This document shows positions 1 to 61,990 of a DNA stretch of 64,000 bases, piece after piece; the first letter of the stretch is position 1, and every line of letters begins with the position of its first letter. The translations under genes were made by a program, and so were the position numbers. The stretch is from Candidatus Forterrea multitransposorum CG_2015-17_Forterrea_25_41. GTDB lineage: Archaea; Iainarchaeota; Iainarchaeia; Iainarchaeales; CSSED10-239. A model generated the notes under the pieces. That model ran no database searches and had not been told where the DNA came from. It was given only the letters and a program-made list of their open reading frames with translations. The DNA lies in assembly GCA_009392915.1 (NCBI GenBank), contig CP045477.1:480001-544000 (forward strand), given 5' to 3'.

Positions 1-1247
1 CCCAGGAATAATTAGATACTCCAGAAACTGCATTACTTACAGAAGAATTAAAACTTATTGTTTGACCAGTATCATAATTTGTACCAGTTGTTGGAGAAGT
101 AACACTTACAGCTAAAGGATCACTAATTAAAATATTACTAACAGTATCAGAATAAACTTGATTAATAGGAGAAGGTCTTGAAGCATCTGTAACTAAAACT
201 CTAAACTCATAAGTCCCACCTGTTGCAAAACCATTTGTTGTAGTATAACTATTAGAACCAAAGTTAGTCCAACCAGTACTGTTTCTATTATACTGCCATT
301 GATAAGATTTAGTACCAATTGCATTTGAAACACCTACATCAAATATTATTCCTTCACTAAGATTATAAACATCACTTGCATCAGGAGTATAAATAGTTGC
401 TGTTAATGGAAGAACAACTGTAAAATCTTCACTTGAAGTTGAAATATCTCCAGTTCCAGAATCTGTTACTTTATAATAAATAGTATAGCTTCCTGTTGAA
501 GATAAAGTTTGAGATAAAGAAGCACAATTAGTACCAACTGCAGTATTAGTATCATTTGAGTTTAATATCCATTCACAAGAAACTGTTGAAACATTATTAT
601 CATAATTTCCAGTAAATGAAATTGTTTCATTATTATTCCAAGTAGTTCTTGACATTGTAATACTTGAAGATAACAAATCTAAAATATTTATTCCAATTGT
701 TTGAGAATCACTTGAAGAATCAAAATCATCTAAAGTATCTAATTTAATTGAATAATCATTAAATACTGAAAAAGAATAACTTGTATTACAATCAGTACTA
801 AAAGATGTAAATGATGGTAAGTCAGCTCTCTTATGACTCCAATTACAAGTTACATTTCCAACATTATTACTATATGAAGAATTAAAATTAATTGTTTTTG
901 TAACATTATAATTTGATTCTTCTGTTGGATTTAATATTGTTGATGAAAAATCATCAAAAATTTCAACAAATAAATCATCACTAAAAGTTCCTTCATCATC
1001 ATTTGCAATTACTAAAATTTCATAAATTCCAGGAGTTGTAAAAGTATAAGAAATATCACACAAGGTATCTGAAGGATTCATTCTTACTTGTGATCCACCT
1101 GCAATTGTATGATACCATTCACAAGAAACACTTCCTCTTTGATAAAGTGTATCAGTTTCAAAAGAAACAGAAGTGTTTACTCTGAATGAATCAAAATTTG
1201 TAACATTTGAAAAGAAAATTTAAGAAGATGGAAGTTCTACAGCACAT
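1..1247 (-). CDS. Partial (runs off window start) secreted/surface protein with repeated PKD/Ig-like domains (repeated C-x-W ... HTY..PG.Y.V.V.D..G motifs), Asn/Thr/Ser rich
   Basis: Hand translation of the minus strand from ATG at 1247 gives an open frame to position 1. Motifs such as VSCEWYH...YTFTTPGIYEILVIANDDEG recur and match the PKD-domain consensus. Not in the ORF track because it is open-ended. Overlaps the stop of the upstream ORF by 28 nt. Confidence 0.45.
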
Positions 1248-1744
1248 TTTCTTAAATCAATTGTTTTTTTAGGACAAGTAGAGTTTGATAAAGTAAAAAC
1301 CTTTAAATCTAAAGGATCAATTATTTCTCCAGAATCAACATTAATATCAGAATTTACAATTGTAAAATCAGTTGTTGATTTTAATTTTTTAATTTCTCCA
1401 GATAAAATAGGATTATCAAAATTACCATACATTTTTAGAACATTTGAAGAATTTTGAGAAGTTCCTTGAATATTTAAAGAAAGATTATAAAAATCAATAG
1501 GGGTTGGGTTTCTTAATAAAACTTCAATATTTCCAGTAGTTGAATCAAGATTACAAGATTCTACAACTAAATTATACTTAATACAATCCATTCTAGAAAC
1601 TTCTTGTAATTGATCTTGTGAAACATCTAATTTTTCTCTAACAGATGTTTTTGACCAAGATAAAAATCCTGCAACTAAAACAGCTGTTACCAAGATTAAT
1701 AAAACTACAGAAATTATTGCCGAAATTGATTTTTTTCTATTCAT
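1220..1744 (-). CDS. Pilin-like protein: N-terminal positively charged segment followed by a hydrophobic helix (class III/type IV pilin-like signal), then a Cys-containing extracellular domain
   Basis: N-terminus MNRKKSISAIISVVLLILVTAVLVAGF resembles archaeal prepilin signal peptides (KK-S/A followed by a hydrophobic stretch). Sits in an operon with a prepilin peptidase and FlaI/FlaJ-like genes. Confidence 0.4.
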   Translation of the reverse strand: MNRKKSISAIISVVLLILVTAVLVAGFLSWSKTSVREKLDVSQDQLQEVSRMDCIKYNLVVESCNLDSTTGNIEVLLRNPTPIDFYNLSLNIQGTSQNSSNVLKMYGNFDNPILSGEIKKLKSTTDFTIVNSDINVDSGEIIDPLDLKVFTLSNSTCPKKTIDLRKCAVELPSS

Positions 1745-1830
1745 AAATATCTTTTTTAAAATATAATATAATTATAGATATTATAGAAACTATTTTAAAG
1801 GTATCTTTATTCTTTTAAAAAAATAAATAT

Positions 1831-2172
1831 TTAAAAAGAAATAATATCATTTATTTTTATAAAAGAAATATCTGTTTCAATTGGAAGTTCAATTATATAT
1901 TTAGCTTTCTTTTTTGGAGAATAAAAAGTAAAAGGTCTTAATCTTTTTTTAATATCAATAACTTTTTTATTTGAATCTAGAAAAAGAACATTTATTGAAT
2001 AGAAAACAAAAAGCATATGAATTGAAGAGCCTACAATAGATTCATATTCTCTTTTAAAAATAAGACCAAAATCAAATTTCTTTCTTGGAAAAAACATAAG
2101 TCCAAGTCCTTGTTTTAAAGGAGAAATTATTTTCTTTTTTTTAATTATTATTTTATTATTAACTTTTATCAA
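1831..2172 (-). CDS. DUF192 (COG1430) family protein
   Basis: Motifs GLMFFPRKK...FGLIF...IHMLFV...IDVLFLDSNKKV...AKYIIELP match the DUF192 signature (GLMfr...GMLF...M.nt..plDi.F.d..g.V...YvLEl). Confidence 0.5.
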   Translation of the reverse strand: MIKVNNKIIIKKKKIISPLKQGLGLMFFPRKKFDFGLIFKREYESIVGSSIHMLFVFYSINVLFLDSNKKVIDIKKRLRPFTFYSPKKKAKYIIELPIETDISFIKINDIISF

Positions 2173-2178
2173 AAATAA

Positions 2179-3330
2179 TCACACTTTTTTTTTTAAACTT
2201 ACCCTATATAAAATAACAAAATCAATATCAGATTTTCTAATCTCAAAATCAAAAAATACAGCATCTGGTACAAAAATAGCATACTCTGCACAAGAAAGAC
2301 CACATTCACTTTGATCAAAAGGTAAAAAATATAGATTATTACTATATGTTTTATCTAGAATATATTTAGAACTAATAGATTTTAAAGCAATGACTTCAGA
2401 AATATTTACTTGTTCTAGCTGATTACGATTCATATAGGTAATAGTGTCAATTAAAACACTCTCAGCATCTGGTTTTGGAACAGCAATTTGAAAGATTAAA
2501 ATTGTAAATATAAAAAATATGAAAATATATTTGATAAAATTAAAACTACTTTCTTCTTTTATTGCAAACATTATAAAAGAAATAAAGATAGAAAGAACAA
2601 TTGCCATATAAAGAAGGAAATTATCAAAAAATATTCTTGTTATTAAATCTTGATCTGCATACCATAAAAAATTATTACCTAGTATAATATTTATGAATAA
2701 AATTACAACTAAAAAGATTACAAATAAAACAATGGATAAATAATATAAATTTAAAAAATATTTTTTCTTTTGTGTTTCTTCTTTAAAAATAGAAATATCT
2801 TTTGAAATATTTAAAAGAACTCTATCAAGAGGTATAGAACTTTCTTTAAAAGTCTTTAACAATATTAAAGTGTGAGTGATTATTGGACTTTTAATAGTCT
2901 CATTAATACCTGATAAAGCATTTTCAAAATCATCTCCCCAAGAAACTCTATTTGCTATTCTTTTTATTTCTGTATCAATTGAACCATAAACATTTGATGT
3001 TGTGATATTGTTTAATGATATTGATAAATTATTTGTAGATTTATACTCTCTCGATAAATCTTGTAAAAAGAATGTAAAAGAAGTTTCAATTGCTTTCTTT
3101 TTAAAGTGTTTTAAAACATATTCTAAAACAAAACCTAAAAAACTTACGAAAAAACCAAAAAAGAAAACTGCATAGTATAATTCAGTATGAAGAAAATATT
3201 TATTTGATAAATGAACAATTAAAAGACCAGATAAAATACTTGCAAGAATTAATATTTGGTATTCATAATTATAAATTAATAGTTTTAATTTAATATTCAT
3301 TTTATCTAAAAATTTATTTTTTTCTATCAT
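2179..3330 (-). CDS. FlaJ/TadC/GspF-family (T2SS-F domain) polytopic membrane protein of type IV pilus/archaellum-like machinery
   Basis: Architecture is TM helices, then a cytoplasmic helical domain (…SREYKSTNNLSISLNNI…IKRIANRVSWGDDFENAL…), then TM helices. Adjacent to the FlaI-like gene. Confidence 0.5.
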   Translation of the reverse strand: MIEKNKFLDKMNIKLKLLIYNYEYQILILASILSGLLIVHLSNKYFLHTELYYAVFFFGFFVSFLGFVLEYVLKHFKKKAIETSFTFFLQDLSREYKSTNNLSISLNNITTSNVYGSIDTEIKRIANRVSWGDDFENALSGINETIKSPIITHTLILLKTFKESSIPLDRVLLNISKDISIFKEETQKKKYFLNLYYLSIVLFVIFLVVILFINIILGNNFLWYADQDLITRIFFDNFLLYMAIVLSIFISFIMFAIKEESSFNFIKYIFIFFIFTILIFQIAVPKPDAESVLIDTITYMNRNQLEQVNISEVIALKSISSKYILDKTYSNNLYFLPFDQSECGLSCAEYAIFVPDAVFFDFEIRKSDIDFVILYRVSLKKKV

Positions 3331-3346
3331 TTAAAAATCAATCTCT

Positions 3347-4189
3347 TCATTTATATAAAATCCCAATTAATACAAATTCAATTACTGCAAATATTATTGA
3401 AAAAATCAACAATGATTCTTTTAATAAAAAATAATCTGTAAAAGTTATAAAAAATATTATTAAAATAACAATAAAAAAGAAAAATAAAAATATTGACATT
3501 AAAAATAAAATATTAATTCTACTTTTCTTTTGTTCACTTAACTCTCTTTTAGATTGTTCTAAATTAGTTAAGAAATCAAGAATAACTTGATTTAAGTCTT
3601 CTTTTTGATCAATAACTTCAATTAATTTTCTAAAGAAGTTTTTTTCAACTTCAGAATATGTTTCAGAAATTATTGATTTAAAAGTATCTTTAAGATTATG
3701 ATTTCTTTTATTTAAAGCAATTATTTTCTTTGCTTCTCTGCTTAATATATCATTATTTTCTAAGTTTTCAAAAACATTCAATACATCTTTAATAGTTAGA
3801 TTTTCATCTCTTAAAACAGATAAATGTTTTATAGATCTTTGAAATTCACTACCAATTTCTTTTTTTATATTATTTAAAATAAAAAAAGGATATTTAAATA
3901 AAAGTAAAAAAATCATAAAAGCAAAAGTAAAAGAAATAAAAATAGTTATAAAAAAACTAAAAAGATTAAACAATATTCCAAGTCTAATCATTAAATAAAT
4001 AAAAGCAAACTCTATAACTATTAAAAAAAATATAGAAATAAAAGAAATATTTGAAATATAACTAATAGAATCTTCATTGATACCAGTATATTCTAAAACT
4101 CTATCAAAATTTTTAAAAGTACCTTTAAATTGCATAACAATATCTTTTAAGAAAAATAAAGATATACTTGTTAAGAATTTACTAAACAT
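3347..4189 (-). CDS. FlaJ/TadC/GspF-family (T2SS-F domain) membrane protein, second half-size paralogue
   Basis: Two N-terminal TM helices, a cytoplasmic helical domain (SEFQRSIKHLSVLRDENLTIKDVL…) and C-terminal TM helices. Together with 2179..3330 this resembles a split FlaJ. Confidence 0.45.
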   Translation of the reverse strand: MFSKFLTSISLFFLKDIVMQFKGTFKNFDRVLEYTGINEDSISYISNISFISIFFLIVIEFAFIYLMIRLGILFNLFSFFITIFISFTFAFMIFLLLFKYPFFILNNIKKEIGSEFQRSIKHLSVLRDENLTIKDVLNVFENLENNDILSREAKKIIALNKRNHNLKDTFKSIISETYSEVEKNFFRKLIEVIDQKEDLNQVILDFLTNLEQSKRELSEQKKSRINILFLMSIFLFFFFIVILIIFFITFTDYFLLKESLLIFSIIFAVIEFVLIGILYK

Positions 4190-4196
4190 ATTTTTT

Positions 4197-7100
4197 TCAC
4201 TTTATATCGAGTCTTTTAAACAACTCGTCCTTTTCATAATTATATTGAGAGATAATACTATTAAAATCTTTGTAATTGTATACTTTTGAATCCTTCATCC
4301 ATCTCATAAGTTTCTTTTTCTTTAAAAAATCAACAACATTTATTGAAGAAGATAAAAGATTAATATTGTATTTATTTTCGGATATTTCTAAATCTACAAC
4401 TACACTTTCATTTTTATTAATTATTTCTTTAATATTTACAATTTGATAAGTTTCTTTAAAACCTTGTTTAATTCTTTTAATTTCTATTAGAATAGATTTT
4501 TGATTAACCATTTTTAATTGTTCAATAAATTTATCAGCAACATTTGGTTTTATTGAAAAGATATTTAAGTTATACCAAGAAACATCAAAAATATCTTCTC
4601 CAAACTCATCAATTGCAATAATATCTGGTTTCTGAGAAATTGTTTGTTCAATAATTAAACGTTTACTTAAATCTGCATTATTTGTAAAAATTCTATTAAT
4701 CCATTCTTTTTGAGGAAGTTTAAATCTATCGTATGCCTGAACAGTTATAATTTTCTGATCAGGATAAAATAAAAGTATAGAATTATAAATTACAAAAGAA
4801 TCATCAACATCATGTAAAATAACTTTATAGTTTTCTGAAATTGCAGACCAGATATATGAAAATACATCTACAGAACCAATAGATGTATTAACTAAAGCAA
4901 CAGGTGTTAATGGTTCATCAAGATATTTTTTAATTACAAAAGAAGAACCTTTACTACTAGTATCTCCTAAAGAATAAAGACCTTCAACTTTATAACCATT
5001 AGGTAAATATCCATCAATCACAGGATGTTCTGGAGTTATATAGATACCCATATTTTTAGTTAAAATAGTTACAAAGTTATTTAACTCAATAATATCTTTA
5101 AAACTAATATTTGTTTTTAAAACACCATACTCTACATGGTAAACTATAAGATTTGATTTTTCACCAGAACAACTAACTTCAATTATTTTTTTATCAAGTA
5201 AAAGATTAGTTAAAATACCTAACCCAAAAAATTCTCTTTGAATAAATTTAAGATAAAGTTTTTGTTGTAATTTACCTAAACTATAAGATAATTTTTCAAC
5301 AGAAATATCAAATATTTTTTGAATATATTTATCAAGACTATGTTTATCTCCATTAAAAGAATAATAGTTTTTATCGATTGTATTAAAAAATACTTTTTTT
5401 AATTGAATATATTCTTTTTCTTGTTCACTATTAAGTTCTGGTTGTACTAAATTATAGAAAAGACCTTTAGTATTATCATAATGTATTGTAACATATGTAA
5501 AATCATCTATAGAATATTTATCAAAAATATTTTTTATATTTTCTTCAAATGAAGCAATAGGATCTTGATACACTAAAGAAGAAAATAGAGAATTGTCAGA
5601 AGATAATTTTTCTTGATATATTTCTTTATTTATTTTAACAGGATTTTTTCCAGCATCTTTTGGAAGGATATAATCCATACCTTTTTCTCTTAAGTCTTTA
5701 AATTTTTCTGCAATTAAATCATTTTTAACTTTCGGAGTTAATTTTACTTCTTTGATAATTTTAATTTCTTGTTCTTTTGGTAATGATTCTTTTTTAATTG
5801 TTTTAGATATTTTTTCATCATCATTATCTTCATCAGAATAATTCTCTTTTGAAGTAACTTTTTCTTCTCTTATAGAAGGAGAAATATATTTTTTATTTTT
5901 GTTTGAAATTTTAGATTTATCTTTTTTATTTTTAGGAGAAGAAATTTCTCTCATACCTTTATATATTCTTTCATCATCTTCTTTAGATAAATCAACATCA
6001 GAAAATACTTTTTTAACATCTTCTTCATCTTTATCTATTTTCTCATTTAAAACATTAACATCAAATTTTTCTTTTTCTTTTTCTTCTAAAGTTTTTGATT
6101 TTTTTAATTTAGAAATATTATTTTCAATTTCAGAATTTAATTTTACTTGATTATTATCAATTACAAAATTTGGTGTTTTTTCAGAAGATTCATTTGTTTT
6201 AATTTCAGAAGATAAAGAAGAATCTTCATTTAAAACTTTTAAATCATTTTTTGAATCTTTATCATATACAGAAAACTTATCTTCAACAGTGTTAGATAAA
6301 TCTTTAACATCATCTTCAATTGCAAAAATATCTGGAACTTCAATTTCTTCAAATAAACCATTAGCCTCACCTAAAGAAGAATTATTTAAATGAGAACTAG
6401 AATTTTTAGAATCTATTTCTAAATTACCTGTGTTTTTAGGAAAATCATTTGAATTTGCTAAAGTTTCTTTATTTTGAGAATCTTTATTTTTATTTACAGA
6501 TAAATGATCTATTTTTGAATATAAATTTTTAACATCATACTTTGGAAAATCAATTTTACTTTTTTTAGGTTTATCATCTAAAAAAGAAAATGATTCTAAA
6601 TAAACTTCTTGATCAAGTTTACTTGCTTTTTTATTTAATTGATCTAATAAATCATCTACATTTTCATTTTTTGATTTTACTTCTGAAAAAATATCATTTG
6701 ATTCTTTACTTTCAGAATATTCTTTTGGTTTAGATACATTTTCTAAAATATCTTTCAAAAGAGACATGGTTTTTTTATTATTATTTGATTCATCAAAATT
6801 TATTTCTTTTTTAATTGAATTATCAATATGATCTATTTTAGGCTCACTTATTAAAAATGAATTTGAAGGTTTTATTTTTTTTTCAGAAGATGAATCCGAA
6901 AGTAGTAGTTCATGAGATGAATCAGGGAGTAATAATTCATTATTAATTTTTGATGAAATTAATTTATTAGATGTTGATTTTTTATCAACTTTATCTAAAG
7001 GAACTTCTTTTTTAAAAATATTAGAATTATCAACCTTATCTAAAGGAACTTCTTTTTTAGAAATATTAGAATTATCAACTTTATCTAAAGGAACTTCTTT

Positions 7101-7547
7101 TTTAGAAATATTAGAATTATCAACTTTATCTAAAGGAACTTCTTTTTTAGAAATATTAGAATTATCAACTTTATCTAAAGGAACTTCTTTTTTAGAAATA
7201 TCTAAATTATCAACTTTATCTAAAAGAATCTTTTTTTTTCTAAAAGGATTAAAATCTTTATATTTTTCTTCAATATCAGAAGTGTCAACTTTTAAGTTTA
7301 CTTTCTTAACATCATTATAATTTTTATTTAAAGAAAAATCATCTTTTTTAGTTTCTGGTAAAACTACATCAAATTTTTGTAATTTTTTAGAATTACTATT
7401 ATTTTTTAAAGAACTATCAATTTTATCTTCTTTTAAAGAACTATCAAATTTATTATTTTTTACAGAATCTGAAGCTTTAGATATAGATTTAGATAGAGGA
7501 ATTCTTTTAATAACCTTAAAACCAGAAAAATTATCCTCTCCACCCAT
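4197..7547 (-). CDS. FlaI/ArlI/VirB11-family secretion-ATPase homologue with degenerate Walker A (predicted catalytically inactive), fused to a ~630-aa low-complexity Lys/Asp/Ser-rich N-terminal extension containing 15-aa tandem repeats
   Basis: The C-terminal ~480 aa align by eye to FlaI: YVTIHYD…LVQPELNSEQEKEY, IEVSCSGEKSNLIVYHVEYGVLKTNISF, KGSSFVIKKYLDEPLTPV, YIWSAISEN. Where FlaI has GETASGKTT the sequence reads HDVDDSFVIY, and the His-box region is also lost. A Walker B-like PDIIAIDEFGE remains. Confidence 0.6.
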   Translation of the reverse strand: MGGEDNFSGFKVIKRIPLSKSISKASDSVKNNKFDSSLKEDKIDSSLKNNSNSKKLQKFDVVLPETKKDDFSLNKNYNDVKKVNLKVDTSDIEEKYKDFNPFRKKKILLDKVDNLDISKKEVPLDKVDNSNISKKEVPLDKVDNSNISKKEVPLDKVDNSNISKKEVPLDKVDNSNIFKKEVPLDKVDKKSTSNKLISSKINNELLLPDSSHELLLSDSSSEKKIKPSNSFLISEPKIDHIDNSIKKEINFDESNNNKKTMSLLKDILENVSKPKEYSESKESNDIFSEVKSKNENVDDLLDQLNKKASKLDQEVYLESFSFLDDKPKKSKIDFPKYDVKNLYSKIDHLSVNKNKDSQNKETLANSNDFPKNTGNLEIDSKNSSSHLNNSSLGEANGLFEEIEVPDIFAIEDDVKDLSNTVEDKFSVYDKDSKNDLKVLNEDSSLSSEIKTNESSEKTPNFVIDNNQVKLNSEIENNISKLKKSKTLEEKEKEKFDVNVLNEKIDKDEEDVKKVFSDVDLSKEDDERIYKGMREISSPKNKKDKSKISNKNKKYISPSIREEKVTSKENYSDEDNDDEKISKTIKKESLPKEQEIKIIKEVKLTPKVKNDLIAEKFKDLREKGMDYILPKDAGKNPVKINKEIYQEKLSSDNSLFSSLVYQDPIASFEENIKNIFDKYSIDDFTYVTIHYDNTKGLFYNLVQPELNSEQEKEYIQLKKVFFNTIDKNYYSFNGDKHSLDKYIQKIFDISVEKLSYSLGKLQQKLYLKFIQREFFGLGILTNLLLDKKIIEVSCSGEKSNLIVYHVEYGVLKTNISFKDIIELNNFVTILTKNMGIYITPEHPVIDGYLPNGYKVEGLYSLGDTSSKGSSFVIKKYLDEPLTPVALVNTSIGSVDVFSYIWSAISENYKVILHDVDDSFVIYNSILLFYPDQKIITVQAYDRFKLPQKEWINRIFTNNADLSKRLIIEQTISQKPDIIAIDEFGEDIFDVSWYNLNIFSIKPNVADKFIEQLKMVNQKSILIEIKRIKQGFKETYQIVNIKEIINKNESVVVDLEISENKYNINLLSSSINVVDFLKKKKLMRWMKDSKVYNYKDFNSIISQYNYEKDELFKRLDIK
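6983..7231 (-). repeat. Coding tandem repeat, 45-nt unit x ~5.5 (encodes KKEVPLDKVDNSNIS repeats) inside the FlaI-like gene
   Basis: Near-identical units ttatcaactttatctaaaggaacttcttttttagaaatattagaa repeat head-to-tail with a few substitutions. Confidence 0.85.
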
Positions 7548-7630
7548 AAATATGCCTTCTTTAAAATATATTTTAATATATAGATATTAGTTCATTAGAT
7601 TTATAAATCTTTAGATATTTTTTAATAGCT

Positions 7631-8362
7631 TCAAATAACAAAAGAAATAATTTTTGGAATAATTTCAAAAACATATAAAAGAATTAGAAAGATATAACTT
7701 ACTAGGATTAATATAATAAATGGAATTAAAGGAGAAAACCACACCTTAGAAATATTATGATTTTTAGCAATAACTTTAATTTTTTTAATTTCATTTTCTG
7801 GTTCAATATTTGGCATAAAAACAATTTTTGAAATTAATTTATTATTTTCTACATACAATTTTTCTAAAGGAGTATAAAAATTATTTACTTTTTTTAAAGA
7901 TAAAGGAACCCCTAAAAACATTAGATATAATGATTTAAAAAAATTATATTTAGGAAAATTTCTTGAAAATAAATTATATAAAAATAAGAAAACAGGTATA
8001 AGTAAAGTTAAAACTAAAGCAAAAAAGAAAATAAACATTGGAAAATATATATCAAAAATATTTGTAAATGATATTGCAAAAATAGTATAAAGATCCCCTT
8101 CTCCTATATATGTAAAATAACTAATCTTTCCTAAAACATAAAAAATTAATAAAAATATAAAACTTACAGCAAGTTGTATTAAATAACCTTTCCATAAAAT
8201 AAAATCTGTTTTAAAAACAAAAATACCTAAATAAAGAATACTAAAGATGGCTAAGAAAAATAAAGACATTATATTTATTTCTCTATACTTAATATCTTGA
8301 TAAGTTACATACAATAAAATAATTATAGAAAAAATAATTATTGGTAAATAAATATAATCCAT
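7631..8362 (-). CDS. Archaeal prepilin/preflagellin peptidase (A24 family, FlaK/PibD-like)
   Basis: Polytopic membrane protein with the two catalytic Asp motifs, TYQDIKYREI and IGEGDLY (GxGD-like). Confidence 0.55.
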   Translation of the reverse strand: MDYIYLPIIIFSIIILLYVTYQDIKYREINIMSLFFLAIFSILYLGIFVFKTDFILWKGYLIQLAVSFIFLLIFYVLGKISYFTYIGEGDLYTIFAISFTNIFDIYFPMFIFFFALVLTLLIPVFLFLYNLFSRNFPKYNFFKSLYLMFLGVPLSLKKVNNFYTPLEKLYVENNKLISKIVFMPNIEPENEIKKIKVIAKNHNISKVWFSPLIPFIILILVSYIFLILLYVFEIIPKIISFVI

Positions 8363-8369: not shown

Positions 8370-9281
8370 CTATATTGATCTTTTTGTAAGATACATTAAA
8401 TCTTTATAAGCTTTAACTTTTGTTTTTCTTGCAGTTGATCTTTCAAAAAGATTATCAGTATAATTTCCAGGAGGTCCTACTGATTTAATTTTTTTATTTT
8501 TAATTTTATTTAAAAGAATCTTATTCTTTAAATTATCATCATCTTTATCAAAAAAAGAAGTATTTAGATCAATTGTTAAAATACCACTACCAATCTCAGA
8601 AACATTATAACTTCCAGAACCAGCTGTAATATAGTTTGACATTTTACCAAGCTTAATTGCTGCTTCAAATTTATAAACAACATCATAACTTTTTTGATCA
8701 ATTTTATGAGTTAAATATTCACTAAAACTTGAAAGTCCTAAAGTCTTAAAAAACCTATGAAGCTCTAAATAATCTAAAATATGTCTTAATTTTCTTAAGA
8801 AAAAAGAATCATGCATATAATAAGATAAATACCCAATTGTTCCAGTATATGCTTCAACACCAATTTTTTTTTCTTTAATAATTTTTTCTAATTTATCAAG
8901 TCCTAAAATATAAGTTGCAGAATTTGATATAAGTCCAAAAGGATGTGCAATTGTTATTAAATATCTTTTTTTATAACAAAAATCAATTAATCTTTTAAGA
9001 GAAACTTTATCTTCATAAAGTATAGAATAATTATAAATACTAGCATCTTCAGAAAAAACTAAAACTTCTCCAGAATCAGTTAATATTTTAATACCTGGAA
9101 TTAATAATTTATCTTTTGGTTTAAATTTTAAAAGTTCAAAATATGCTTTTCTAGGATCTAAATAATTATATTCAGTTATAGCTGTACCTAAAAGATTATT
9201 TTCAGAAACTACTTTCCAATATTTTTTTGCAGACTCTTTATTTTTAAAAAGATGAGTATGCATGTCAATATTATATAACAT
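8370..9281 (-). CDS. PHP-domain metal-dependent phosphoesterase
   Basis: N-terminal IDMHTH and internal IAHP motifs are typical of PHP-family hydrolases. Confidence 0.45.
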   Translation of the reverse strand: MLYNIDMHTHLFKNKESAKKYWKVVSENNLLGTAITEYNYLDPRKAYFELLKFKPKDKLLIPGIKILTDSGEVLVFSEDASIYNYSILYEDKVSLKRLIDFCYKKRYLITIAHPFGLISNSATYILGLDKLEKIIKEKKIGVEAYTGTIGYLSYYMHDSFFLRKLRHILDYLELHRFFKTLGLSSFSEYLTHKIDQKSYDVVYKFEAAIKLGKMSNYITAGSGSYNVSEIGSGILTIDLNTSFFDKDDDNLKNKILLNKIKNKKIKSVGPPGNYTDNLFERSTARKTKVKAYKDLMYLTKRSI

Positions 9282-17556: not shown

Positions 17557-19170
17557 ATGTCAGATCAAAGAATTATTGAAAATATCAGAAAATTAAAATC
17601 ATTAGGAATGCCTGATAAAGAAATAATCGAGAATCTTGTAAACATAGGTTTATCCCCTGACGAAAGTGCAAAATTAATAAATGATTCTGGTAAAGAAAAA
17701 GAAGAAAGTGAACTTCAAACAAAAATTAAAGAAATAAAAGATAAACCTAAAAAAGAAAAAACAAAAGAAGTAACTCCAAAAAAGAAAGAAGAAATACCAA
17801 ATGATTTCTTTTCAGATGATCAAGGAGAAATAATTGATTCACCAATTAACAATGATACTGATGATGATATCTTAGAAGACGATACTTCAAAAGAATTAAA
17901 CAAATTAAAAAATATATCTTCAAAAGAAAAAAATGATGAGTTAAGTTTTGATATAGATTTAAAAGAAGATAAAAAAGAAGAACCTGATCTTTATAAGAAA
18001 TACAAAGAAGATGAAAATGAAGATTTATATAAAAAATATGTTACAACAAATGAAAAACCAAACCAAGTAGAAGTTAATAATACTGGAGATGTTTGGCAAA
18101 AAGGATTACTTGCAACCATTAACTCTAAATTAACAGAACTTGAAAATAAACAAAAATCTATTGAAGATGCAATTAAATTAAAAATAGAAAATGAAATGGA
18201 TAATATCCAAAAATATCAAGAAAAAACACAACAAGAAACAAAACAAATAACCAGTAAAATAATTTCATCTGAAACAGATAAATTAAATGCAAAAATTGTA
18301 ACAGAAGTTGCAAAACTAAAAATTGCAGAAGCAAAAATAAATAATAAAATACAAATAATTGAAGAAGATAAAGGAAAAATACAAGAACTTTCAAAAGATT
18401 TTGAATCATTAAAAAAAGATTTAAAAGATAATATTATAGAAACTAAAAAAAGAACAGACTCAATTGTATCTAGAACAGAAGAAAGTCTTTCAAAAATAAT
18501 TACAACAACAACAGTTAAACTTAATGAAAAAATTAAAGAAATCAATAGCACTTTAGCATTACAATCAAAAATAACAGAAGGACTTGTTAAAAATACTCAA
18601 AATACATTATCAACAGAAATTAAAAAATTAATAGAGTTCCAAAAAGATATAAAAACACAAATTGATCCTAAAAAAATATATGATAAAATTAGTGAACTTG
18701 AAGACTTTAAGATTAAACTTGCAAATAGATATGAAGAAAGATTTGAAACTGTTAAAACTGAATTTTTACATAAAGCAAAAATTGCAATAAAATCTGAAAT
18801 TGAAAACGATTTAAAAGAGTTAAACCAAATCAAAGAAGAAGTTGTTTCAAAAACAGATCCAGAAAGAATAGAAAAGAAACTTGTAGAACTTAGAAAACTT
18901 GAAGAAGAACTAGTAGCATCAGTTGATACAAAAATAGAACAATCTTTAAAAATATATCAAGCATCAATAACTAAAGAATTTAAAGATAAAATGGTTGAAA
19001 TTGATAACTATAAAAACAGTTTAGAAAAAAGCAAATTATTAGTTGACGAATTAAAAGATAAAATAAAAGAAATAGATAAATTTAAACAACAGTTTATTGC
19101 TGTAATTGATGAAAATATCGAAAAGATGAATCAAAATATGAAGATTCTTCTAGAACAAAAAAAAGGTTAG
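17557..19170 (+). CDS. Long coiled-coil protein: small UBA-like N-terminal domain followed by a ~480-aa Lys/Glu-rich heptad-repeat region
   Basis: Composition and heptad periodicity. N-terminus LGMPDKEIIENLVNIGLSPDESAKLI is UBA-like. Confidence 0.35.
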   Translation: MSDQRIIENIRKLKSLGMPDKEIIENLVNIGLSPDESAKLINDSGKEKEESELQTKIKEIKDKPKKEKTKEVTPKKKEEIPNDFFSDDQGEIIDSPINNDTDDDILEDDTSKELNKLKNISSKEKNDELSFDIDLKEDKKEEPDLYKKYKEDENEDLYKKYVTTNEKPNQVEVNNTGDVWQKGLLATINSKLTELENKQKSIEDAIKLKIENEMDNIQKYQEKTQQETKQITSKIISSETDKLNAKIVTEVAKLKIAEAKINNKIQIIEEDKGKIQELSKDFESLKKDLKDNIIETKKRTDSIVSRTEESLSKIITTTTVKLNEKIKEINSTLALQSKITEGLVKNTQNTLSTEIKKLIEFQKDIKTQIDPKKIYDKISELEDFKIKLANRYEERFETVKTEFLHKAKIAIKSEIENDLKELNQIKEEVVSKTDPERIEKKLVELRKLEEELVASVDTKIEQSLKIYQASITKEFKDKMVEIDNYKNSLEKSKLLVDELKDKIKEIDKFKQQFIAVIDENIEKMNQNMKILLEQKKG

Positions 19171-32528: not shown

Positions 32529-32608
32529 AAAAATTAATCCTAGTTTTTATTTTTTGAAAAATTAGATGAATGCTTGACCATCGCTCTTCAACTAAGTAAA
32601 GAGTTGAG

Positions 32609-32681
32609 TGCCTCGAGCCAGATTTGAACTGGCGGTCTCCAGATTATGAGTCTGGCGCTTTAACCACTAAGCCACCGAGGC
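32609..32681 (-). tRNA. tRNA with CAU anticodon (elongator Met or Ile2-type)
   Basis: Hand-folded. Acceptor GCCTCGG/TCGAGGC, anticodon arm CCAGA-CUCAUAA-UCUGG, T arm GCCAG-TTCAAAT-CTGGC, discriminator A. No initiator features (no G-C triplet in the anticodon stem, G1-C72). Confidence 0.75.
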
Positions 32682-38721: not shown

Positions 38722-41692
38722 CTTAAACTTTACTCGAACCATTAGTATTAGAGAGCTTAAATACTCGCCCGAAGGCTTGCATCGTATACTCCTAACCTAT
38801 CAAACCGGTCTTCTTCCGGAGTTCTCGTCTCGCATTTCTGCGAAAATGGCTGTCTCGTTTTAGGGTTCGCTTCGTGCTTAGATGCTTTCAGCACTTATCG
38901 AATACAGCGTAGCTACTGGGCATTGCCTTGTCAGACAACCCACACACCAGAGACTGCGACCCATCGTTCCTCTCGTACTAAACGGATCTTACCTTCAAAC
39001 AACCAACACAACCAATAGATAGGAACCAAACTGTCTCGCAACGTTCTTAACCCAGCTAATGTACGGCTTTAATGAGTGAACACCTCCACCCTTGGCTGCT
39101 TGTGCACAGCCAGGATGCCGTAAGCCGACAGCGAGGTAGCAAACCGCGGGGTCGATGTGAACTCTCACCCGCGACAACCCAGTTACCCCCAGGGTAAGTT
39201 CACTGTCAGACTAGGCCCCCATAAATAGGGACACTAGCGTTCGCTAGACCCAAGTTTCCTTCCAACGTTCCGTGCTTTTAAGAACATTGTTAAGCCTGCT
39301 TTTGGTCTTGTCCTCTACGGCTGATTTCTGACCAGCCTGAGCAGACCTTTGGACGCCCCTGATATCTTTTCAGGGGCGTACCGCCCCAGTCCAACCACCC
39401 GATCAAGTGATGTCCGTCATATAGACGTAAGTTGTATTTTTCCTACTAGATGGTGTTACATTGGCGTCTGACTACTTCCTAGCGAAAGCAGCTAAAGCGA
39501 CTCCCATCTACGCTCTATAGTAAAAACAATACAACAACACCAGACTGTGGTAAACCTCCGTGGGGTCTTATCCTCCCATTGGTTGTCCGTGGCTTATTCA
39601 CCACGCTAAGCAAGTTCACTAAGTTAAAGTTAGGGACAGTGACGATCTCGTTACTTCCTTGGTGCAAGCCGACATTTAATCGGCAAGGTATTACGCTACC
39701 ATGAGAGCCTCAGAGTTAGGCCCGCTCTTTACCAGCGCTTAGACCAGTTGGACCTGGCGTTCACGTACTAGCAGTGAGCAGAAGTCAGTGACTATACACA
39801 CCGTTTCCGGCTAGCAGTCACCTGTGTTTTTGATAAACAGTCGGACCATCTTTGTAATTAAAACTTACAGTTTACTCAACCGTAAGCACCCCTTCTACCT
39901 AAGATACAGGGCTAATTTGCCGAATTCCCTTAACTTTATTCTCTTATTACGCTTTGGCCTATTCAGCCAGGGACACCTTTCTCAGTTCTGGGTACGAACA
40001 ACAATACACTTTATAGTTTCTTTTTCATGGACCCTTGGCCTTGATAAAAGATTTCTCCCATTCACCTCTTTAATCTCCATCTCATTATTATAATTCTCCG
40101 GAGATCTATAAGGTTTAGATATGCAGACAAGCATACTCCACCTTGCCAAAAGTGTTAGAAACTATACTTGCGTTACCACACGTGCATTATCGGTACAGGA
40201 ATATGAACCTGTTTCCCTTTCGTCATTCTTCGAGTTACGAAGAGACTTAGGATCGACTTACCCTTAGCTAAAGATTAGTGCTAAGGAACCCTTGCCCTTT
40301 CAGCGGAAATGATTCTCACATTTCTTTGATGTTACTATCGCGAGGATCCATATCTTTGACAGATCCAGTGGACGTTACCCCCCACCTTCTGCTCTATCAA
40401 AGCACCTACCTACCAGATCACATATTGCATGTGCTCTATGATATCGGCGACAAACTTAGCCCCGTTAATTTTCAAGGCAATCGTCCTAGATTGGTGAGCT
40501 ATTACGCACTCTTTAAAGGATGGCTGCTTCTAAGCCAACCTCCCAATTGTCTTAGGAAAACTACTCTTTTCGAATTTACACTTAGTTTGTACTTAAGGGC
40601 CTTAATCATAGTCTGGGTTTTTTCCCTTTTGGAACAGAGGCTTACCCCCCGCCCCCTACTCTGGACTTCTTAGAAAATAACAGATTCGGAGTTTAACAAG
40701 AAAGGTGGAAATTTCTTCCCAGTACTTTCTAATCAGTAGCTCTACCCCGTTATTCTTCTCCATCCATGCTAACCTCAGAGTTATTTCGATAGGAGCCCGC
40801 TATCACCAGGTTCGATAACCTTATCAGTCCTACTCCCAAGTCATACGAACAGTTAGACTAGTACCGCTTATGACCTCCACCAACCAGGCGGTTGGTTTCA
40901 TCAAGCTCAGGAGTTTATCACCTGGTTTCGGGTCTAGTTTATGTGACTTAAGGCACAGTTAATACCTTTAGCCCTCAGAATCTTGCGGCACATCGGTTTC
41001 CCTACGACACAACGACTTAATCGCTTAGTCTTGCCACACAAACTAACTCCCTCGCCCGTGCTTCGTGACGGACAGTGTGACCCTGATCAAGTAATTTGCG
41101 CTTTAAAAGTTACCTTTTATCACTTATAAATTACTCTCATTCCTTTCAAGCCACACCCGCGCTGTCACCAATTAGTTTCAAGTGCTTTTTACTCCCCGTC
41201 AAGGGATCTTTTCAACATTCCTTCGCAGTACTCGTTCACTATCGGTCTTGTGTTATATTTAGAATTAGCTGTAAATGCCAGCTATTTTCTTACGCGATAT
41301 CCAACGCGCAATACTCTAGGACATCGGAAATCTTCTCAGATATCTTCTGCTTACGGGACTATCACCCTCTATGGTAGATCTTTCCAGATCGCTTCAACTT
41401 AAATATATAAGAAGTAACCAAGCCATACCCCACATGTCTCTTATATTACTATAAGAGATTCGGTTTGTTCTCTTCTGCTTTCGATCAACTCTATTTACAG
41501 AATCACTATTGTTTTCTTTTCCTCCAGGTACTAAGATGCTTCAATTCCCTGGGTTACCCCTTCACCTTATTTTCATAAAGTGAATAATTCAGAAATCTTG
41601 GGATCAAAGGTTGCATGCACCTACCCCAAGCTTATCGCAGCTTGCCACGTCCTTCATCAGTACACAAGCCAAGTTATCCACTAATTGGTTTA
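38722..41692 (-). rRNA. 23S (large-subunit) rRNA, archaeal
   Basis: The reverse complement contains domain V/VI landmarks: GCTGGGTTAAGAACGTTGCGAGACAGTTTGG, the sarcin-ricin loop TAGTACGAGAGGAAC, the A-loop GGAGGTGTTCAC, and the 5' region GATGAAGGACGTG. GC-rich relative to its surroundings. End coordinates are approximate to within ~10 nt. Confidence 0.9.
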
Positions 41693-41748
41693 GCTAAAAT
41701 TTAAGAATCATTTTTTTTTAACCAAATAAACTTGCTTTTGTTATTATT

Positions 41749-50385: not shown

Positions 50386-52980
50386 TTAAGAAATTATTCT
50401 TATATTAATTTCTGATTCTTGGTTTTCTAATATTTGATGAACAGTTGCATTGATATCAGTTGTTTGTGCTTTAATAATACCAACATCAGTTAAGATAGAA
50501 TCAATGTTTGTCCTAACCTCACCACTTAAAAGATTCCATGTATTTAAAGTAGTTTGATTAATTTCTTCTAACTTTTGTGCTTGTGTTTGATCCATTATTT
50601 CAATAGCTGTTTTAATATTATAAACTTCTTGACATAATGGGCTGTTGTTAGTATCTTCATTACCACAAAAGTTTTCAACTAATGCAAGATTATCATCAAC
50701 TGATGAAAATCTGTTTCTAATTTCTCCCATGTCTTCTTGATTAATTGAATTTGAAACTAACCAATTAGTATCTTGCTTAATTGATGTTAATTGATTTGTT
50801 AAATCTTCAAGCATTAAATCAAGTTGAACATTAATATTGTTTACAACTAAATCTGTCATTAAACTTGAAAGAGAATCATTTACATCAATTATCTGTGTCT
50901 GTAATGTTTGACCTGTTGAAACAACAGTTCCATTTACAGAAATCTCTAAATTATCAAGTCTTGTTGAAAGGAAATCATTTGAATCTGAAAACTTTTGTGC
51001 AATCAATGCATTTGTATAATTAAATTGATTTGTAATTTCAGTAGATAAATTAACATTAACAGCATTTAAAAGATCTGTTAAAGAAGTTGAAACATTTGTT
51101 AAATTTGTATTTATTTCTTCACCAGTTTCTGTAACAGTTGCAGTTAATGATAAATTTACATTATCAAGTTGACTAGATAATTCTGCAAATCTTAAATCAA
51201 TCTTATCTGAAAGATCAGTATTAACTGTGTTTAAAAGATTTGAAAGAGTTGTTGTTGAAAGAGAAATATTTGTATTTATCTCTTCACCTGTCTCTTCTAA
51301 ATTTGCATTTAAACTTAAATTAACATTTGTAAGTTGATCAGATAATTGATTAAATCTTAAATCAATCTTATCTGAAAGATCTGTATTAACTGTGTTTAAA
51401 AGATTTGAAAGAGTAGTTGTTGAAAGAGAAATATTTGTATTAATCTCTTCTCCAGTCTCATCTAAATTTGCATTTAAACTTAAACTTACATTTGTAAGTT
51501 GATTAGATAATTCTGTAAACTTTAAATCAATCTTATCTGAAAGATCTGTATTAACTGTATTTAAAAGACCAGTTAAAGAAGTTGAAACATTTGTTAAATT
51601 TGTATTTATTTCTTCACCAGTTTCTTCTAAATTTGCAGTTAAACTTAAATTTACATTTTCTAAATTATTTTGAGAAGTATTAAAATCTTCTTCTAATTGA
51701 TTTAATAAATTATTATTTACTGAATTTAATAAATCTAAAATATTTGTTGTAGAAGTATTAATATTTGTATTAATCTCTTCTCCTGTAGTTGTAACTGTAC
51801 CTGTTAAATTTAAACTAACATCATTTAAATTTGCAGTTAAAGAATTATAATCAAATTCCATTTGATCTAAAAGACCAGAATTAACTGAATTTAAAAGATT
51901 AGTTAAATTTGTGTTTGTAGTATCAATATTTGTATTTATTTCTTCGCCTGTTAAAAGAACAGTTCCTGTTAAATTTAAACTAACATCATTTAAATTTTCA
52001 TTTAATGAATTTAAATCAGAATCCATTTGATCTAAAAGACCAGAATTAACTGAATTTAAAAGATTAGTTAAATTTGTGTTAGTTGCATCAATATTTGTAT
52101 TAATTTCTTCACCAGTAGATGCAATTGTTCCAGTTAAATTTAAATTTACATTATTTAAATTTGCATTTAAAGAATCAAAATTTGTATCCATTTGTTCTAA
52201 AATACCAGAATTAACATTTGATAAAAGATTTTCTAAATTTGTATTAACATTTGTTAAACTTGTTTGAATTTCTTCACCAGTTGATGAAATTGTACCTGTT
52301 AAAGAAAGATCAACACCTGAAAGATCAGTTTGTAATGTTACAATTCCTTCTTGTAATTCATTTGCAAGAGTTCCATTAACATCTGCAAGTAAATCATTTA
52401 AAGAAGTATTCATGTTTGTTAAATTTGTTGTAATATATTCTCCAGTTTCAGAAATTTGACCAGCTACAGAAACATTAACATCTGCAAGTCTTAAATCTAA
52501 ATTATCTGATTTTTCGGTTAAAACACTTATTTGTTCAAGTGCTGGATTTAAGTGAAAAGATTGTGAACTTTTTACAATTGTTGCACCACTTCTACAAGTT
52601 ACTTCTTGTTCATAAGTTCCTAAAGGAGCATCTCCTAAATAATCTGTTCTATACCAGTTTCCTGCAATATTTGATTCAGACATTGGCTGATCATCAACAA
52701 ATACAGATTTGTCTGGATGCAGTATAGTTACTCTACATTCATCTATTGGATAAGGATTACCTTTATAGTCTGATAATCTAACAATAGTTGAACCATAATC
52801 TTCTCTCCAGTATTCTGTGTGAGAAACCCATTGGAAAGAAATTTCATCTTCAACAACAGTTTTTCCACTAACATAAGCAGTTGCTAAAAAGGCAACAACA
52901 ATTAATAAAACACCTAAAATACTTAATTTTAAGTATTTATTTCTTTTTTTCTTATCTGTCATAATTACTCTTAACCTCAT
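50386..52980 (-). CDS. Large membrane-anchored surface protein: N-terminal TM helix, globular domain, then ~8-9 tandem 54-aa Asn/Thr/Leu-rich repeats (coiled-coil/fibrous)
   Basis: Repeat units such as NANLEETGEEINTNISLSTTTLSNLLNTVNTDLSDKIDLRFNQLSDQLTNVNLSL. The underlying DNA units recur at a 162-nt period, for example at 51210 and 51372. Confidence 0.5.
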   Translation of the reverse strand: MRLRVIMTDKKKRNKYLKLSILGVLLIVVAFLATAYVSGKTVVEDEISFQWVSHTEYWREDYGSTIVRLSDYKGNPYPIDECRVTILHPDKSVFVDDQPMSESNIAGNWYRTDYLGDAPLGTYEQEVTCRSGATIVKSSQSFHLNPALEQISVLTEKSDNLDLRLADVNVSVAGQISETGEYITTNLTNMNTSLNDLLADVNGTLANELQEGIVTLQTDLSGVDLSLTGTISSTGEEIQTSLTNVNTNLENLLSNVNSGILEQMDTNFDSLNANLNNVNLNLTGTIASTGEEINTNIDATNTNLTNLLNSVNSGLLDQMDSDLNSLNENLNDVSLNLTGTVLLTGEEINTNIDTTNTNLTNLLNSVNSGLLDQMEFDYNSLTANLNDVSLNLTGTVTTTGEEINTNINTSTTNILDLLNSVNNNLLNQLEEDFNTSQNNLENVNLSLTANLEETGEEINTNLTNVSTSLTGLLNTVNTDLSDKIDLKFTELSNQLTNVSLSLNANLDETGEEINTNISLSTTTLSNLLNTVNTDLSDKIDLRFNQLSDQLTNVNLSLNANLEETGEEINTNISLSTTTLSNLLNTVNTDLSDKIDLRFAELSSQLDNVNLSLTATVTETGEEINTNLTNVSTSLTDLLNAVNVNLSTEITNQFNYTNALIAQKFSDSNDFLSTRLDNLEISVNGTVVSTGQTLQTQIIDVNDSLSSLMTDLVVNNINVQLDLMLEDLTNQLTSIKQDTNWLVSNSINQEDMGEIRNRFSSVDDNLALVENFCGNEDTNNSPLCQEVYNIKTAIEIMDQTQAQKLEEINQTTLNTWNLLSGEVRTNIDSILTDVGIIKAQTTDINATVHQILENQESEINIRIIS
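50890..52330 (-). repeat. Coding tandem repeat array, 162-nt unit (54 aa), ~8-9 copies with graded divergence; central copies nearly identical
   Basis: Long near-identical stretches (…cttatctgaaagatctgtattaactgtgtttaaaagatttgaaagagt…) recur at a 162-nt period. Confidence 0.7.
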
Positions 52981-60006: not shown

Positions 60007-60040
60007 GATAACTTTATAATTATTACTATAGTAAATATAT

Positions 60041-60526
60041 TTGAATAATTACAAATTGGTAAAAAATATGATTAATGAAAAATTAATTGAAATAATTAAT
60101 GATTTAAAAAATAAAAGATTATCAGATATTGAAATAATAGATATTTTACTTTTAAATAATTATAATATTGATGAAATTAAAGAAAATTTAACACATTATA
60201 ATGAAATCCATGGATATAATAGTCTTAACTATATAGATAAATATGAAAAAATCCAAGGTAAAAAATTCTTTGATAATAATGAAAGACTTGAAGAAACTAA
60301 TGAAGAACCATCTGTTAAAAAAGAAGTAGTCAAAGAAAATAAAAAAGAAGAAATAAAAGAACCAGTAAAAGAAATTAAAAAAGAAGTTTTAAAAGTTGAA
60401 AAAGTAAAAAAGAAAATGAAAATTGGAGATTTTATTGGTCTTCTTGCAATTGTTATTTTACTTGCATTTATTATTTATGTAATTTTAAACTATGATGTAA
60501 TTGGTAAATTAAAGGCAGCATTATAG
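60041..60526 (+). CDS. Small protein: UBA-like N-terminal domain, Lys/Glu-rich linker, C-terminal TM anchor
   Basis: LSDIEIIDILLLNNYNIDEIKENL resembles the N-terminal domain of 17557..19170. C-terminal hydrophobic helix. Confidence 0.3.
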   Translation: MNNYKLVKNMINEKLIEIINDLKNKRLSDIEIIDILLLNNYNIDEIKENLTHYNEIHGYNSLNYIDKYEKIQGKKFFDNNERLEETNEEPSVKKEVVKENKKEEIKEPVKEIKKEVLKVEKVKKKMKIGDFIGLLAIVILLAFIIYVILNYDVIGKLKAAL

Positions 60527-60622
60527 TTTATTAATTTCTAAAAAAGATTATGTTTTTAAAGTTATAGTATATATATTATTTATATATAGTCTATTTTTTT
60601 AAAAACTAGATTAACATATAAA

Positions 60623-60695
60623 GCCTCTATAGCTCAGTGGCTAGAGCGGCAGTCTTGTAAACTGTAGGTCGAGGGTTCAAATCCCTCTAGAGGCT
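60623..60695 (+). tRNA. tRNA-Thr (anticodon UGU)
   Basis: Hand-folded. Acceptor GCCTCTA/TAGAGGC, D arm GCTC/GAGC, anticodon arm GCAGT-CUUGUAA-ACTGT, T arm GAGGG-TTCAAAT-CCCTC. A TATA-like atttatatata sits ~35-45 nt upstream. Confidence 0.8.
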
Positions 60696-60767
60696 TCTTT
60701 TTATTGGGTTATAGCTATTTCACTTTTTTTGTACGCTTTTTAATCTTTTCTACACTAATAAATATTT

Positions 60768-61986: not shown

Positions 61987-61990
61987 ATTT

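Follow-up and report, generated by a model that had tools for sequence, protein, structure and literature searches.

We analyzed a 64,000-nucleotide (nt) stretch of the genome of Candidatus Forterrea multitransposorum CG_2015-17_Forterrea_25_41 (contig CP045477.1, positions 480,001 to 544,000; hereafter the window). A type IV pilus operon on the minus strand at its left end encodes, in the slot of the assembly ATPase, a protein of 1116 amino acids (aa) that by descent is a member of the FlaI/GspE2 clade but lacks every catalytic hallmark on which membership is judged. Comparison with related genomes showed that this motor-slot protein is under purifying constraint with its fold retained, and that it is co-inherited with an apparently active prepilin peptidase, a pair of platform proteins and a DUF192 protein. 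The ancestor of this pseudo-ATPase was the assembly ATPase in an archaeal type IV pilus operon of the Epd/Tad-like kind. We lean towards the view that, at the pilus platform, the present protein acts as a scaffold or adaptor that is conserved but non-catalytic, and that the ATP-driven step, if there is one, is performed in trans.

Fold and lost motifs of the pseudo-ATPase

The NCBIfam FlaI model matched the 1116-aa protein with an E-value of 1.9e-30, the match being restricted to aa 668-955 (profile positions 26-327 of 527). Pfam gave no match to the protein, not even T2SSE. In a phmmer search against solved structures, GspE2 (2oap) was recovered at 1.1e-30 and FlaI (4ihq/4ii7) at ~1e-21, with these alignments fading past the Walker B strand. 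An AlphaFold2 (AF2) model of the C-terminal ~500 aa as a monomer displayed the two-domain FlaI/GspE2 fold (predicted local distance difference test, pLDDT, 83.3; predicted template modelling score, pTM, 0.82). Foldseek ranked 2oap and 4ii7/4ihq as the top matches of this model, at E ~1e-29 to 1e-31 over ~500 columns (5.7e-31 over 501 columns for 2oap). As in FlaI/ArlI and GspE2, the protein is composed of an N-terminal domain, a RecA-like C-terminal domain and C-terminal helices. It shares with FlaI/GspE2 the landmarks GLG..L..D..IE(V/I)SC.G, YG...TN, LP.G, GSSF.I.K(Y/F) and PLTP.

According to McCallum et al. 2017 (PMC5424180, followed here for all motif roles), PilT-like ATPases show complete or high conservation of both Walker motifs, A and B, of the catalytic Glu, of the Asp-box Glu, which mediates Mg coordination, and of two Arg fingers. 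In contrast to FlaI/GspE2, the pseudo-ATPase lacks Walker A, the Asp-box Glu and the His box, has Lys at the Arg-finger sites and carries a ~620-aa disordered extension. At the Walker A slot, LHDVDDSFVIYNS aligns with VGETASGKTTTLNA of the solved GspE2/FlaI proteins, with 2 residues deleted; as aligned, the same facing pair reads ILHDVDDSFVIYNS versus VVGETASGKTTTLNA. The former P-loop is HDVDDSFVIY in place of the Walker A consensus GxxxxGK[ST]. The Asp box has changed from IEDTREI to VQAYDRF in the window protein (family form I.QS.D..K), its Glu and Arg having disappeared, and the His-box segment has been lost in a 5-residue deletion. VGEVRG, comprising Walker B and the catalytic Glu, is replaced across the family by IDEF, LDNF, VENF, LDTF and similar sequences, such that the catalytic-Glu position may be E, N, T, D or K. 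A hydrophobic strand of the Walker B kind with a terminal Asp (PDIIAIDEF) is retained, and the window protein has Glu at the catalytic-Glu position. The positions aligned with the Arg fingers are both Lys, SR(V/L) having become YKV (in YKVEG) and (T/I)RKF having become IKKY (in VIKKY); the fingers themselves probably map onto these two sites. We infer from the sequence that the pseudo-ATPase would be unable to bind or hydrolyze ATP.

Mis-registration of the P-loop was ruled out by three pairwise hidden Markov model (HMM) alignments, two family alignments and a regular-expression scan. An original prediction, made from the sequence of the window, had described a FlaI-like protein without P-loop and His box. 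The register it assumed is confirmed by these independent alignments and the scan, and the profile-HMM alignment to FlaI/GspE2 that it proposed shows Walker A and His box to be lost. The proposed structure prediction returned the FlaI/GspE2 fold, and the landmark segments KGSSFVIKKY, PLTPV and IEVSCSGE are present in the C-terminal part as claimed. Its description of a Lys/Asp/Ser/Asn-rich disordered N-terminal extension with 15-aa tandem repeats likewise holds, for aa 1-616.

This extension (K 19%, S 13%, D 11%, N 10%) evolves rapidly, with 26% identity to relatives. Its 15-aa repeat unit, KKEVPLDKVDNSNIS, is encoded by 5.7 copies of a 45-nt repeat at 6982-7239. The copy number differs between otherwise identical populations, resulting in proteins of 1116, 1101, 1086 or 1071 aa; note that one assembly has a scaffold gap in this region. 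Within the extension, a block at aa 283-428 is conserved, with the motifs D.LL..L.K, PF.E.ISFL.D.PK..KI, LY.K.D and LIEEIEIPEI.S..DD. An HMM of the block matched all representatives of the pseudo-ATPase family (75-120 bits) and zero canonical relatives; the block is also absent from P0047, a distant Walker-less relative. For the block, AF2 predicts no more than two helices and a beta-hairpin (pLDDT 60.6, pTM 0.20). Thus, the block fits binding motifs better than a domain.

Conservation of the family and of its operon

A word-indexed protein search returned 28 homologues at 40-73% identity, the full-length ones being 750-860 aa long and none carrying a precomputed Pfam domain. When 1.84 billion cluster representatives were searched exhaustively with a profile, 16 clusters (50% identity) scored above 620 bits, followed by a drop to 271 bits and below. 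The hosts are Iainarchaeota/Diapherotrites-like DPANN archaea (NCBI labels 'Candidatus ainarchaeum sp.' and 'Candidatus Diapherotrites archaeon'), and family members are annotated as 'hypothetical' or misnamed as ATPase. Conservation of the degenerate P-loop across related genomes had been suggested as a check: GxxxxGK[ST] is absent from all 16 top clusters. GGTA[ST]GKT is found in nearly all lower-scoring relatives, the exceptions being P0073 and P0161 (inteins in the P-loop), P0108 and P0095 (degenerate loops) and P0047. In both P0073 and P0161, an insertion that begins with Cys splits Walker A immediately after GSGK, which would fit inteins in the P-loop of archaeal PilB/FlaI-like ATPases. 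The loops of P0108 (GKAKSGKH) and P0095 (GDAGTGRTS) are other, independent P-loop degenerations.

The alignment of the 16 family sequences contains 79 invariant columns. Asp916 in the former P-loop is invariant (D300 in alignment A2) and, together with Q937, D940, F982 and W991, belongs to the new invariant residues of the degenerate domain. In a rough neighbour-joining tree the family is monophyletic on one long stem branch. Pairwise identity within the family is 56.5% for the N-terminal domain versus 43.3% for the C-terminal domain, inverting the pattern of canonical relatives (39% versus 42%). The N-terminal domain is the best-conserved part of the protein, relatives being 54% identical to the window protein. 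The exact 1116-aa sequence is present on 26 contigs, with variants differing in repeat number only, and more than 24 intact homologues were found. A recent pseudogene is ruled out by these intact homologues and because the motif losses are common to a monophyletic family with a conserved operon.

The operon region comprises the following features:

8370..9281 (-): PHP-like metallohydrolase-type gene, 303 aa (weak NCBIfam CehA/McbA match, 1.1e-3)
7631..8362 (-): archaeal class III signal (prepilin) peptidase, A24 family, 243 aa (profile matches)
4197..7547 (-): FlaI/GspE2-type pseudo-ATPase, 1116 aa, with long N-terminal extension
5700..7547 (-): N-terminal extension of the pseudo-ATPase, aa 1-616 (from composition and identity)
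6982..7239 (-): 45-nt (15-aa) tandem repeat in the pseudo-ATPase gene, 5.7 copies
6264..6701 (-): family-specific conserved block inside the extension, aa 283-428 (from conservation map and block HMM)
4878..5570 (-): FlaI-type N-terminal domain, aa 660-890 (from alignments)
4368..4877 (-): degenerate RecA-like C-terminal domain, aa 891-1060 (from alignments and AF2)
4788..4817 (-): former P-loop, LHDVDDSFVI, with Asp916 (translation of that stretch)
4200..4367 (-): helical tail at the C-terminus, aa 1061-1116, conserved (relatives 46% identical)
3347..4189 (-): platform protein 1, single T2SSF domain, 280 aa (Pfam T2SSF 2.1e-9, NCBIfam ArlJ/FlaJ 5.2e-9)
2179..3330 (-): platform protein 2, single T2SSF domain and C-terminal extension, 383 aa (Pfam T2SSF 2e-8)
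1831..2172 (-): DUF192 (COG1430) protein, 113 aa (Pfam DUF192 2.9e-9)
1..1744 (-): pilin-like adhesin gene with TAA at 1220-1222, running off the window edge (signal peptide, PKD/Ig repeats)

In the list of open reading frames (ORFs), intergenic gaps along the operon are 6-86 nt. The earlier description of a tightly spaced, co-directional operon with peptidase, FlaI-like protein, two T2SSF proteins and DUF192 protein stands; what had been counted as separate pilin-like and PKD genes is a single gene, and an eighth co-directional gene lies upstream. This PHP-like gene is separated from the peptidase gene by 7 nt, and the transcription unit may begin with it. Its position is the same in all relatives, and among the neighbouring genes it shows the highest conservation (57-71% identity). 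In relatives at greater distance, the tight array also includes an ATP-grasp_5 gene in front of it. A scan for sigma-70 promoters was uninformative (83 sites versus 83.8 expected), and no terminators were found.

The peptidase matched Pfam Arc_PepC_II at 5.8e-10 (40.1 bits; cut-off 29.9) and NCBIfam FlaK at 1.3e-7; the match to Peptidase_A24 (2.2e-4, 22.1 bits) is below the cut-off of 26.5. Catalytic Asp23 (YQDIKYREI) and Asp89 of the GxGD motif (IGEGD) are kept in five of six orthologues, the sixth having GEAD, and the enzyme is apparently active, judging from these residues. A PDB sequence search returned no match for the PHP-like protein and no useful match for the peptidase. Orthologues of platform proteins 1 and 2 are 44-55% and 47-54% identical, respectively. 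The DUF192 protein (PF02643, 37.4 bits, cut-off 27; NCBIfam PRK03760, 1.2e-21) has one internal hydrophobic stretch (aa 46-65) and no N-terminal hydrophobic segment of the signal-peptide type.

In relatives at 40-54% identity, the genes for peptidase, pseudo-ATPase, a 280-aa T2SSF protein, a T2SSF protein of ~380 aa and the DUF192 protein follow in identical order. The flanks are syntenic as well, with adenylate kinase, TrkH/TrkA, NMD3, beta-CASP and the PHP-like gene on one side and ribosomal L16/L10e and NDK on the other. The operon proteins are conserved to the same degree as NMD3 or the neighbouring methyltransferase. At the P0047 locus the order is peptidase, P0047, T2SSF, T2SSF; P0048, the nearest canonical ATPase, also has a long N-terminal extension and is followed by two T2SSF genes. 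This matching layout indicates that the dead protein sits in the ancestral motor slot. In relatives without the pilin gene, a conserved stretch lies between DUF192 and L16 (L001:12918-13343, L004:14900-15370, L005:14870-15360). Stop codons interrupt it in every frame; an ORF of 141 aa called in it is apparently spurious, and the stretch could be a conserved non-coding RNA.

The last part of the operon was re-interpreted. The pilin-like ORF (1220-1744, minus strand) and the PKD-like repeats, which extend from 1219 to the window edge, share one frame and are parted only by the TAA at 1220-1222; the next 46 codons are without a start codon. A close relative (L171) has CAA at this position and a single 811-aa ORF, and intact adhesins of sister populations measure 933-954 aa. 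What looks like two ORFs is a single gene that a CAA-to-TAA change has interrupted with a nonsense codon, and not a pilin-like protein followed by a separate PKD surface protein. The TAA is present in all three assemblies compared, and the 174-aa truncated product occurs on 41 contigs. The N-terminus (MNRKKS/ISAIISVVLLILVTAVLVAGFLSW) is the sole match in the window to the archaeal pilin pattern; pilin HMMs remained sub-threshold (UpsA 0.052) and PKD_4 matched the repeats at 2.3e-6. By its sequence, the product can be classed as a class III signal-peptide adhesin with a pilin-like domain and PKD/Ig repeats.

The operon resembles the archaeal type IV filament (TFF) system 1 (Epd-like) or subsystems 4A/4B, in which two platform genes are present, also in DPANN (preprint 10.64898/2026.04.22.720090), and the bacterial Tad system (TadB/TadC, CpaF). 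The likeness extends to a class III signal peptidase, two single-domain platform genes, a putative class III signal-peptide pilin, a large adhesin-type protein and occurrence in DPANN. A comparable set in the Epd pilus of Methanococcus maripaludis comprises the EppA peptidase, the EpdJ/EpdK platform pair and the EpdL ATPase. In contrast to all of these, the motor slot here is occupied by a catalytically degenerate homologue and DUF192 is a conserved operon member. The archaeal TFF preprint (10.64898/2026.04.22.720090) reports functional ATP-binding motifs as present, and neither it nor the 2016 census of archaeal type IV pili (PMC4858521) mentions inactivated ATPases or DUF192; the literature searched contained no link between DUF192 and pili.

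The label 'archaellum-like', given to the operon previously, had to be dropped, as no match to the archaellin, ArlH, ArlX or ArlCDE families was found among the seven operon proteins scanned. An archaellum is ruled out by the missing archaellin, a platform made of two single-domain proteins, and a PKD adhesin as the sole class III signal-peptide protein found in the window. The supposed splitting of FlaJ is no anomaly either: two platform genes are normal for system 1/4A/4B, and the nearest canonical relative has the same layout.

The locus is not confined to one assembly. The window is identical to JGI contig Ga0100381_1000002 (663,621 bp) over 11,744 overlapping bases, and the pseudo-ATPase locus is also present in NCBI GCA_009993835.1 and an ENA assembly. 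Contigs with the exact protein sequences reach 839,632 bp in length. Note that the three assemblies are identical over 15.5 kb except for repeat number and one scaffold gap.

An intact Fer4-ATPase and other features of the contig

Searching the window with the C-terminal 500 aa of the pseudo-ATPase (phmmer and tblastn) for a second FlaI-like gene returned the query alone. A P-loop regular expression applied to the window ORFs matched only adenylate kinase, SMC, ABC, GTPase and tRNA synthetase proteins, and Pfam found no T2SSE in ten further window ORFs. An intact ATPase gene is located outside the window on the same contig. It encodes a 587-aa protein with Fer4 and T2SSE domains and starts 9.2 kb past the pilin gene, ~8.0 kb beyond the left end of the window (L087:19709-20525) and 12.2 kb from the stop codon of the pseudo-ATPase. 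Thus, the designation 'only ATPase' of the original prediction applies to the operon and the 64-kb window, but not to the genome. The additional suggestion of an active ATPase encoded elsewhere finds a candidate in this Fer4-T2SSE protein, whose motifs appear intact.

P0182, a 90%-identity cluster representative, is 97% identical to the Fer4-ATPase of the window contig over the available part and has four intact motifs: Walker A GNTGSGKTT, Asp box VVVEEVREI, Walker B RMRPDRVVIGEIR and His box GTYTTFHS. Orthologues carry the same motifs. The downstream genes were read in relatives, including a strain 97% identical, the window contig itself being read only into the ATPase gene. In the relatives, this locus (locus B; L171:10001-13864 and L172:10001-13950) comprises PRPP synthase, the 2x[4Fe-4S]-ferredoxin-T2SSE protein, two small T2SSF-like proteins and a DedA/VTT protein; the loci read are without a pilin or peptidase gene. 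Locus B resembles the Aap pilus of Sulfolobales with its Fe-S protein AapX in combining an Fe-S domain with a TFF ATPase and platform module. In locus B, by contrast, the ATPase carries the ferredoxin domain as an N-terminal fusion, and two small T2SSF-like genes follow.

Both ATPase types were repeatedly found together. On an 839,632-bp contig, NCP72015 is the pseudo-ATPase, NCP72019 the pilin and NCP72030 the Fer4-ATPase (P0313), 15 accessions after NCP72015. In a sister population, both types are present on contigs of matching size (364,349, 368,344 and 48,270 bp). The family member P0024 (44% identical) and a Fer4-ATPase lie ~210 kb apart on the 813,239-bp contig Ga0116249_10000002. In this genome, locus B keeps its platform pair though the pseudo-ATPase locus has lost its own.

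The Fer4-T2SSE family is large in DPANN, with Walker A present in 118 of 119 members among those listed. A query with the partial 272-aa Fer4-ATPase returned three fragments only, and a metagenome motif scan gave two intact relatives among the matches listed. In a search for canonical paralogues, the best 80 of more than 582 matches included none from the four GTDB assemblies that carry the family, with patterns that are unable to match the Fer4-ATPase.

The remainder of the window (~22% G+C) contains tRNAs and a complete archaeal 23S rRNA gene (38722-41705, minus strand). Since no 16S rRNA gene is present in the 64 kb, the rRNA operon appears to be unlinked. An Rfam 'Plastid-ycf2' match at 32608-32681, exactly at the gathering score and on the strand opposite to a tRNA, is almost certainly a false positive. 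A Cas1 gene (61991-63172, minus strand; Pfam 2.3e-62) adjoins a 249-aa ORF without family match, and no CRISPR array was found near it in 59000-64000. Two coiled-coil/low-complexity proteins are encoded, one of 537 aa beside adenylate kinase and syntenic in all relatives (17557-19170, plus strand), and one of 864 aa with apolipoprotein-like repeats (50386-52980, minus strand).

Possible roles of the pseudo-ATPase

To our knowledge, all type IV filament systems known so far (pili, archaella, Tad, Com and type II secretion) are defined by an active PilT/VirB11-type ATPase acting on a platform protein, and a Walker-less FlaI/PilB family was not described in the literature searched. Other machines contain NTPase subunits that are non-catalytic or degenerate, such as TadZ/CpaE of Tad pili, ArlH of the archaellum, the EccC ATPase domains and those AAA modules of dynein that have no P-loop; nucleotide binding is retained in TadZ and ArlH. 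The pseudo-ATPase would resemble these proteins in the use of an NTPase fold as a structural or regulatory element, with energy being provided by another ATPase. However, we know of none among them that is a PilT/VirB11-family protein in the motor position.

In the reading we lean towards, the pseudo-ATPase would dock at the cytoplasmic face of the platform via its conserved N-terminal domain and C-terminal tail, while the disordered extension with its helix, beta-hairpin and acidic motifs would act as a docking hub. Such a scaffold or adaptor may organize or gate the maturation and display of the pilin-like adhesin, and if there is an ATP-driven step, it would be performed in trans, the Fer4-ATPase of locus B being the most plausible candidate. 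A more far-reaching arrangement, which we regard as rather unlikely, is that a dead FlaI-like ring with its ~600-aa disordered docking arm stays permanently in the motor position of the pilin-processing platform, while a separate, redox-sensing Fer4-ATPase with a mini-platform of its own would supply or gate the energy, via mixed rings or hand-over between platforms. If true, such a two-part machine would represent a division of labour between scaffold and motor that has not been described for any type IV filament system.

Several observations weigh against a scaffold or adaptor. Equipped with a platform pair of its own, locus B occurs widely in DPANN irrespective of the pseudo-ATPase locus (locus A), so that co-occurrence of the two may reflect lineage only; moreover, the T2SSE complement of these genomes is known in part. 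The N-terminal block gave no confident AF2 fold. The nonsense codon in the adhesin gene of the window population is a sign of erosion, the P0024 lineage (813-kb contig) has lost both T2SSF genes, and on one 4.7-kb contig the gene is split (P0001 and P0030). The last three, with the premature TAA shared by three assemblies and its truncated product on 41 contigs, are also what one would cite for a decaying relic, i.e. an operon being lost in reduced DPANN genomes with a functionless ATPase homologue, together with a C-terminal domain that evolves faster than in canonical relatives. We consider a relic unlikely. Intact ORFs of 750-1130 aa occur in ~16 clusters, and the operon order is identical at 40-54% identity, with conservation equal to that of neighbouring housekeeping genes. 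The invariant columns, the family-specific N-terminal block and the new invariant residues speak of gained constraint and not of drift, and the P0024 lineage retains peptidase, pseudo-ATPase and DUF192 where the platform genes are gone. Thus, a relic fits the family-wide conservation poorly.

Other explanations grant the protein a function of a different kind. It might be a negative regulator or brake, the dead ring competing with the Fer4-ATPase for the platform or capping its own, to yield a static, non-retracting adhesin or pilus for permanent attachment to the host. Such a brake would explain why the platform-facing N-terminal domain is kept while catalysis is lost; it would also accord with a putatively active paralogue with its own platform in the same genomes, and with the P0024 genome, which keeps the pseudo-ATPase without a cognate platform pair. 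However, it leaves the conserved family-specific block unexplained, and sequence data alone cannot separate brake from scaffold; we hold it to be rather unlikely. We find it improbable that the FlaI-like fold has become the oligomerization module of a hub unrelated to pili, whose ~600-aa arm recruits cytoplasmic factors, for example at a cell-cell contact site. The long, variable, repeat-bearing extension with its family-specific short motifs and the persistence of the gene without adjacent T2SSF genes in one lineage would fit such a hub, but in all other relatives examined, including P0047, the gene stays between the peptidase and platform genes, and the block is not a recognizable domain. 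Finally, a non-canonical NTPase, or a sensor of nucleotide or another ligand, might be read from the Walker-B-like strand PDIIAIDEF with its Glu at the catalytic position, and from the replacement of Arg at both finger positions by Lys and not by a neutral residue. However, no family member has the GK[ST] triad, and the P-loop, 2 residues shorter, contains an Asp that never varies. The Asp-box Glu and the His-box segment are lost as well, and the catalytic-Glu position is variable. Cryptic NTPase activity fits these deletions and the invariant Asp poorly, and appears highly unlikely.

With a conserved but catalytically dead homologue in the motor slot, two things become conceivable: the motor fold may have a structural role separable from catalysis, or a platform may be served by an ATPase that is encoded elsewhere and is foreign to it. 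Each of these would bear on the coupling between motor and platform and on the attachment structures of host-dependent DPANN archaea. The family provides a natural 'motif-null' variant for structural work on the contacts between ring and platform.

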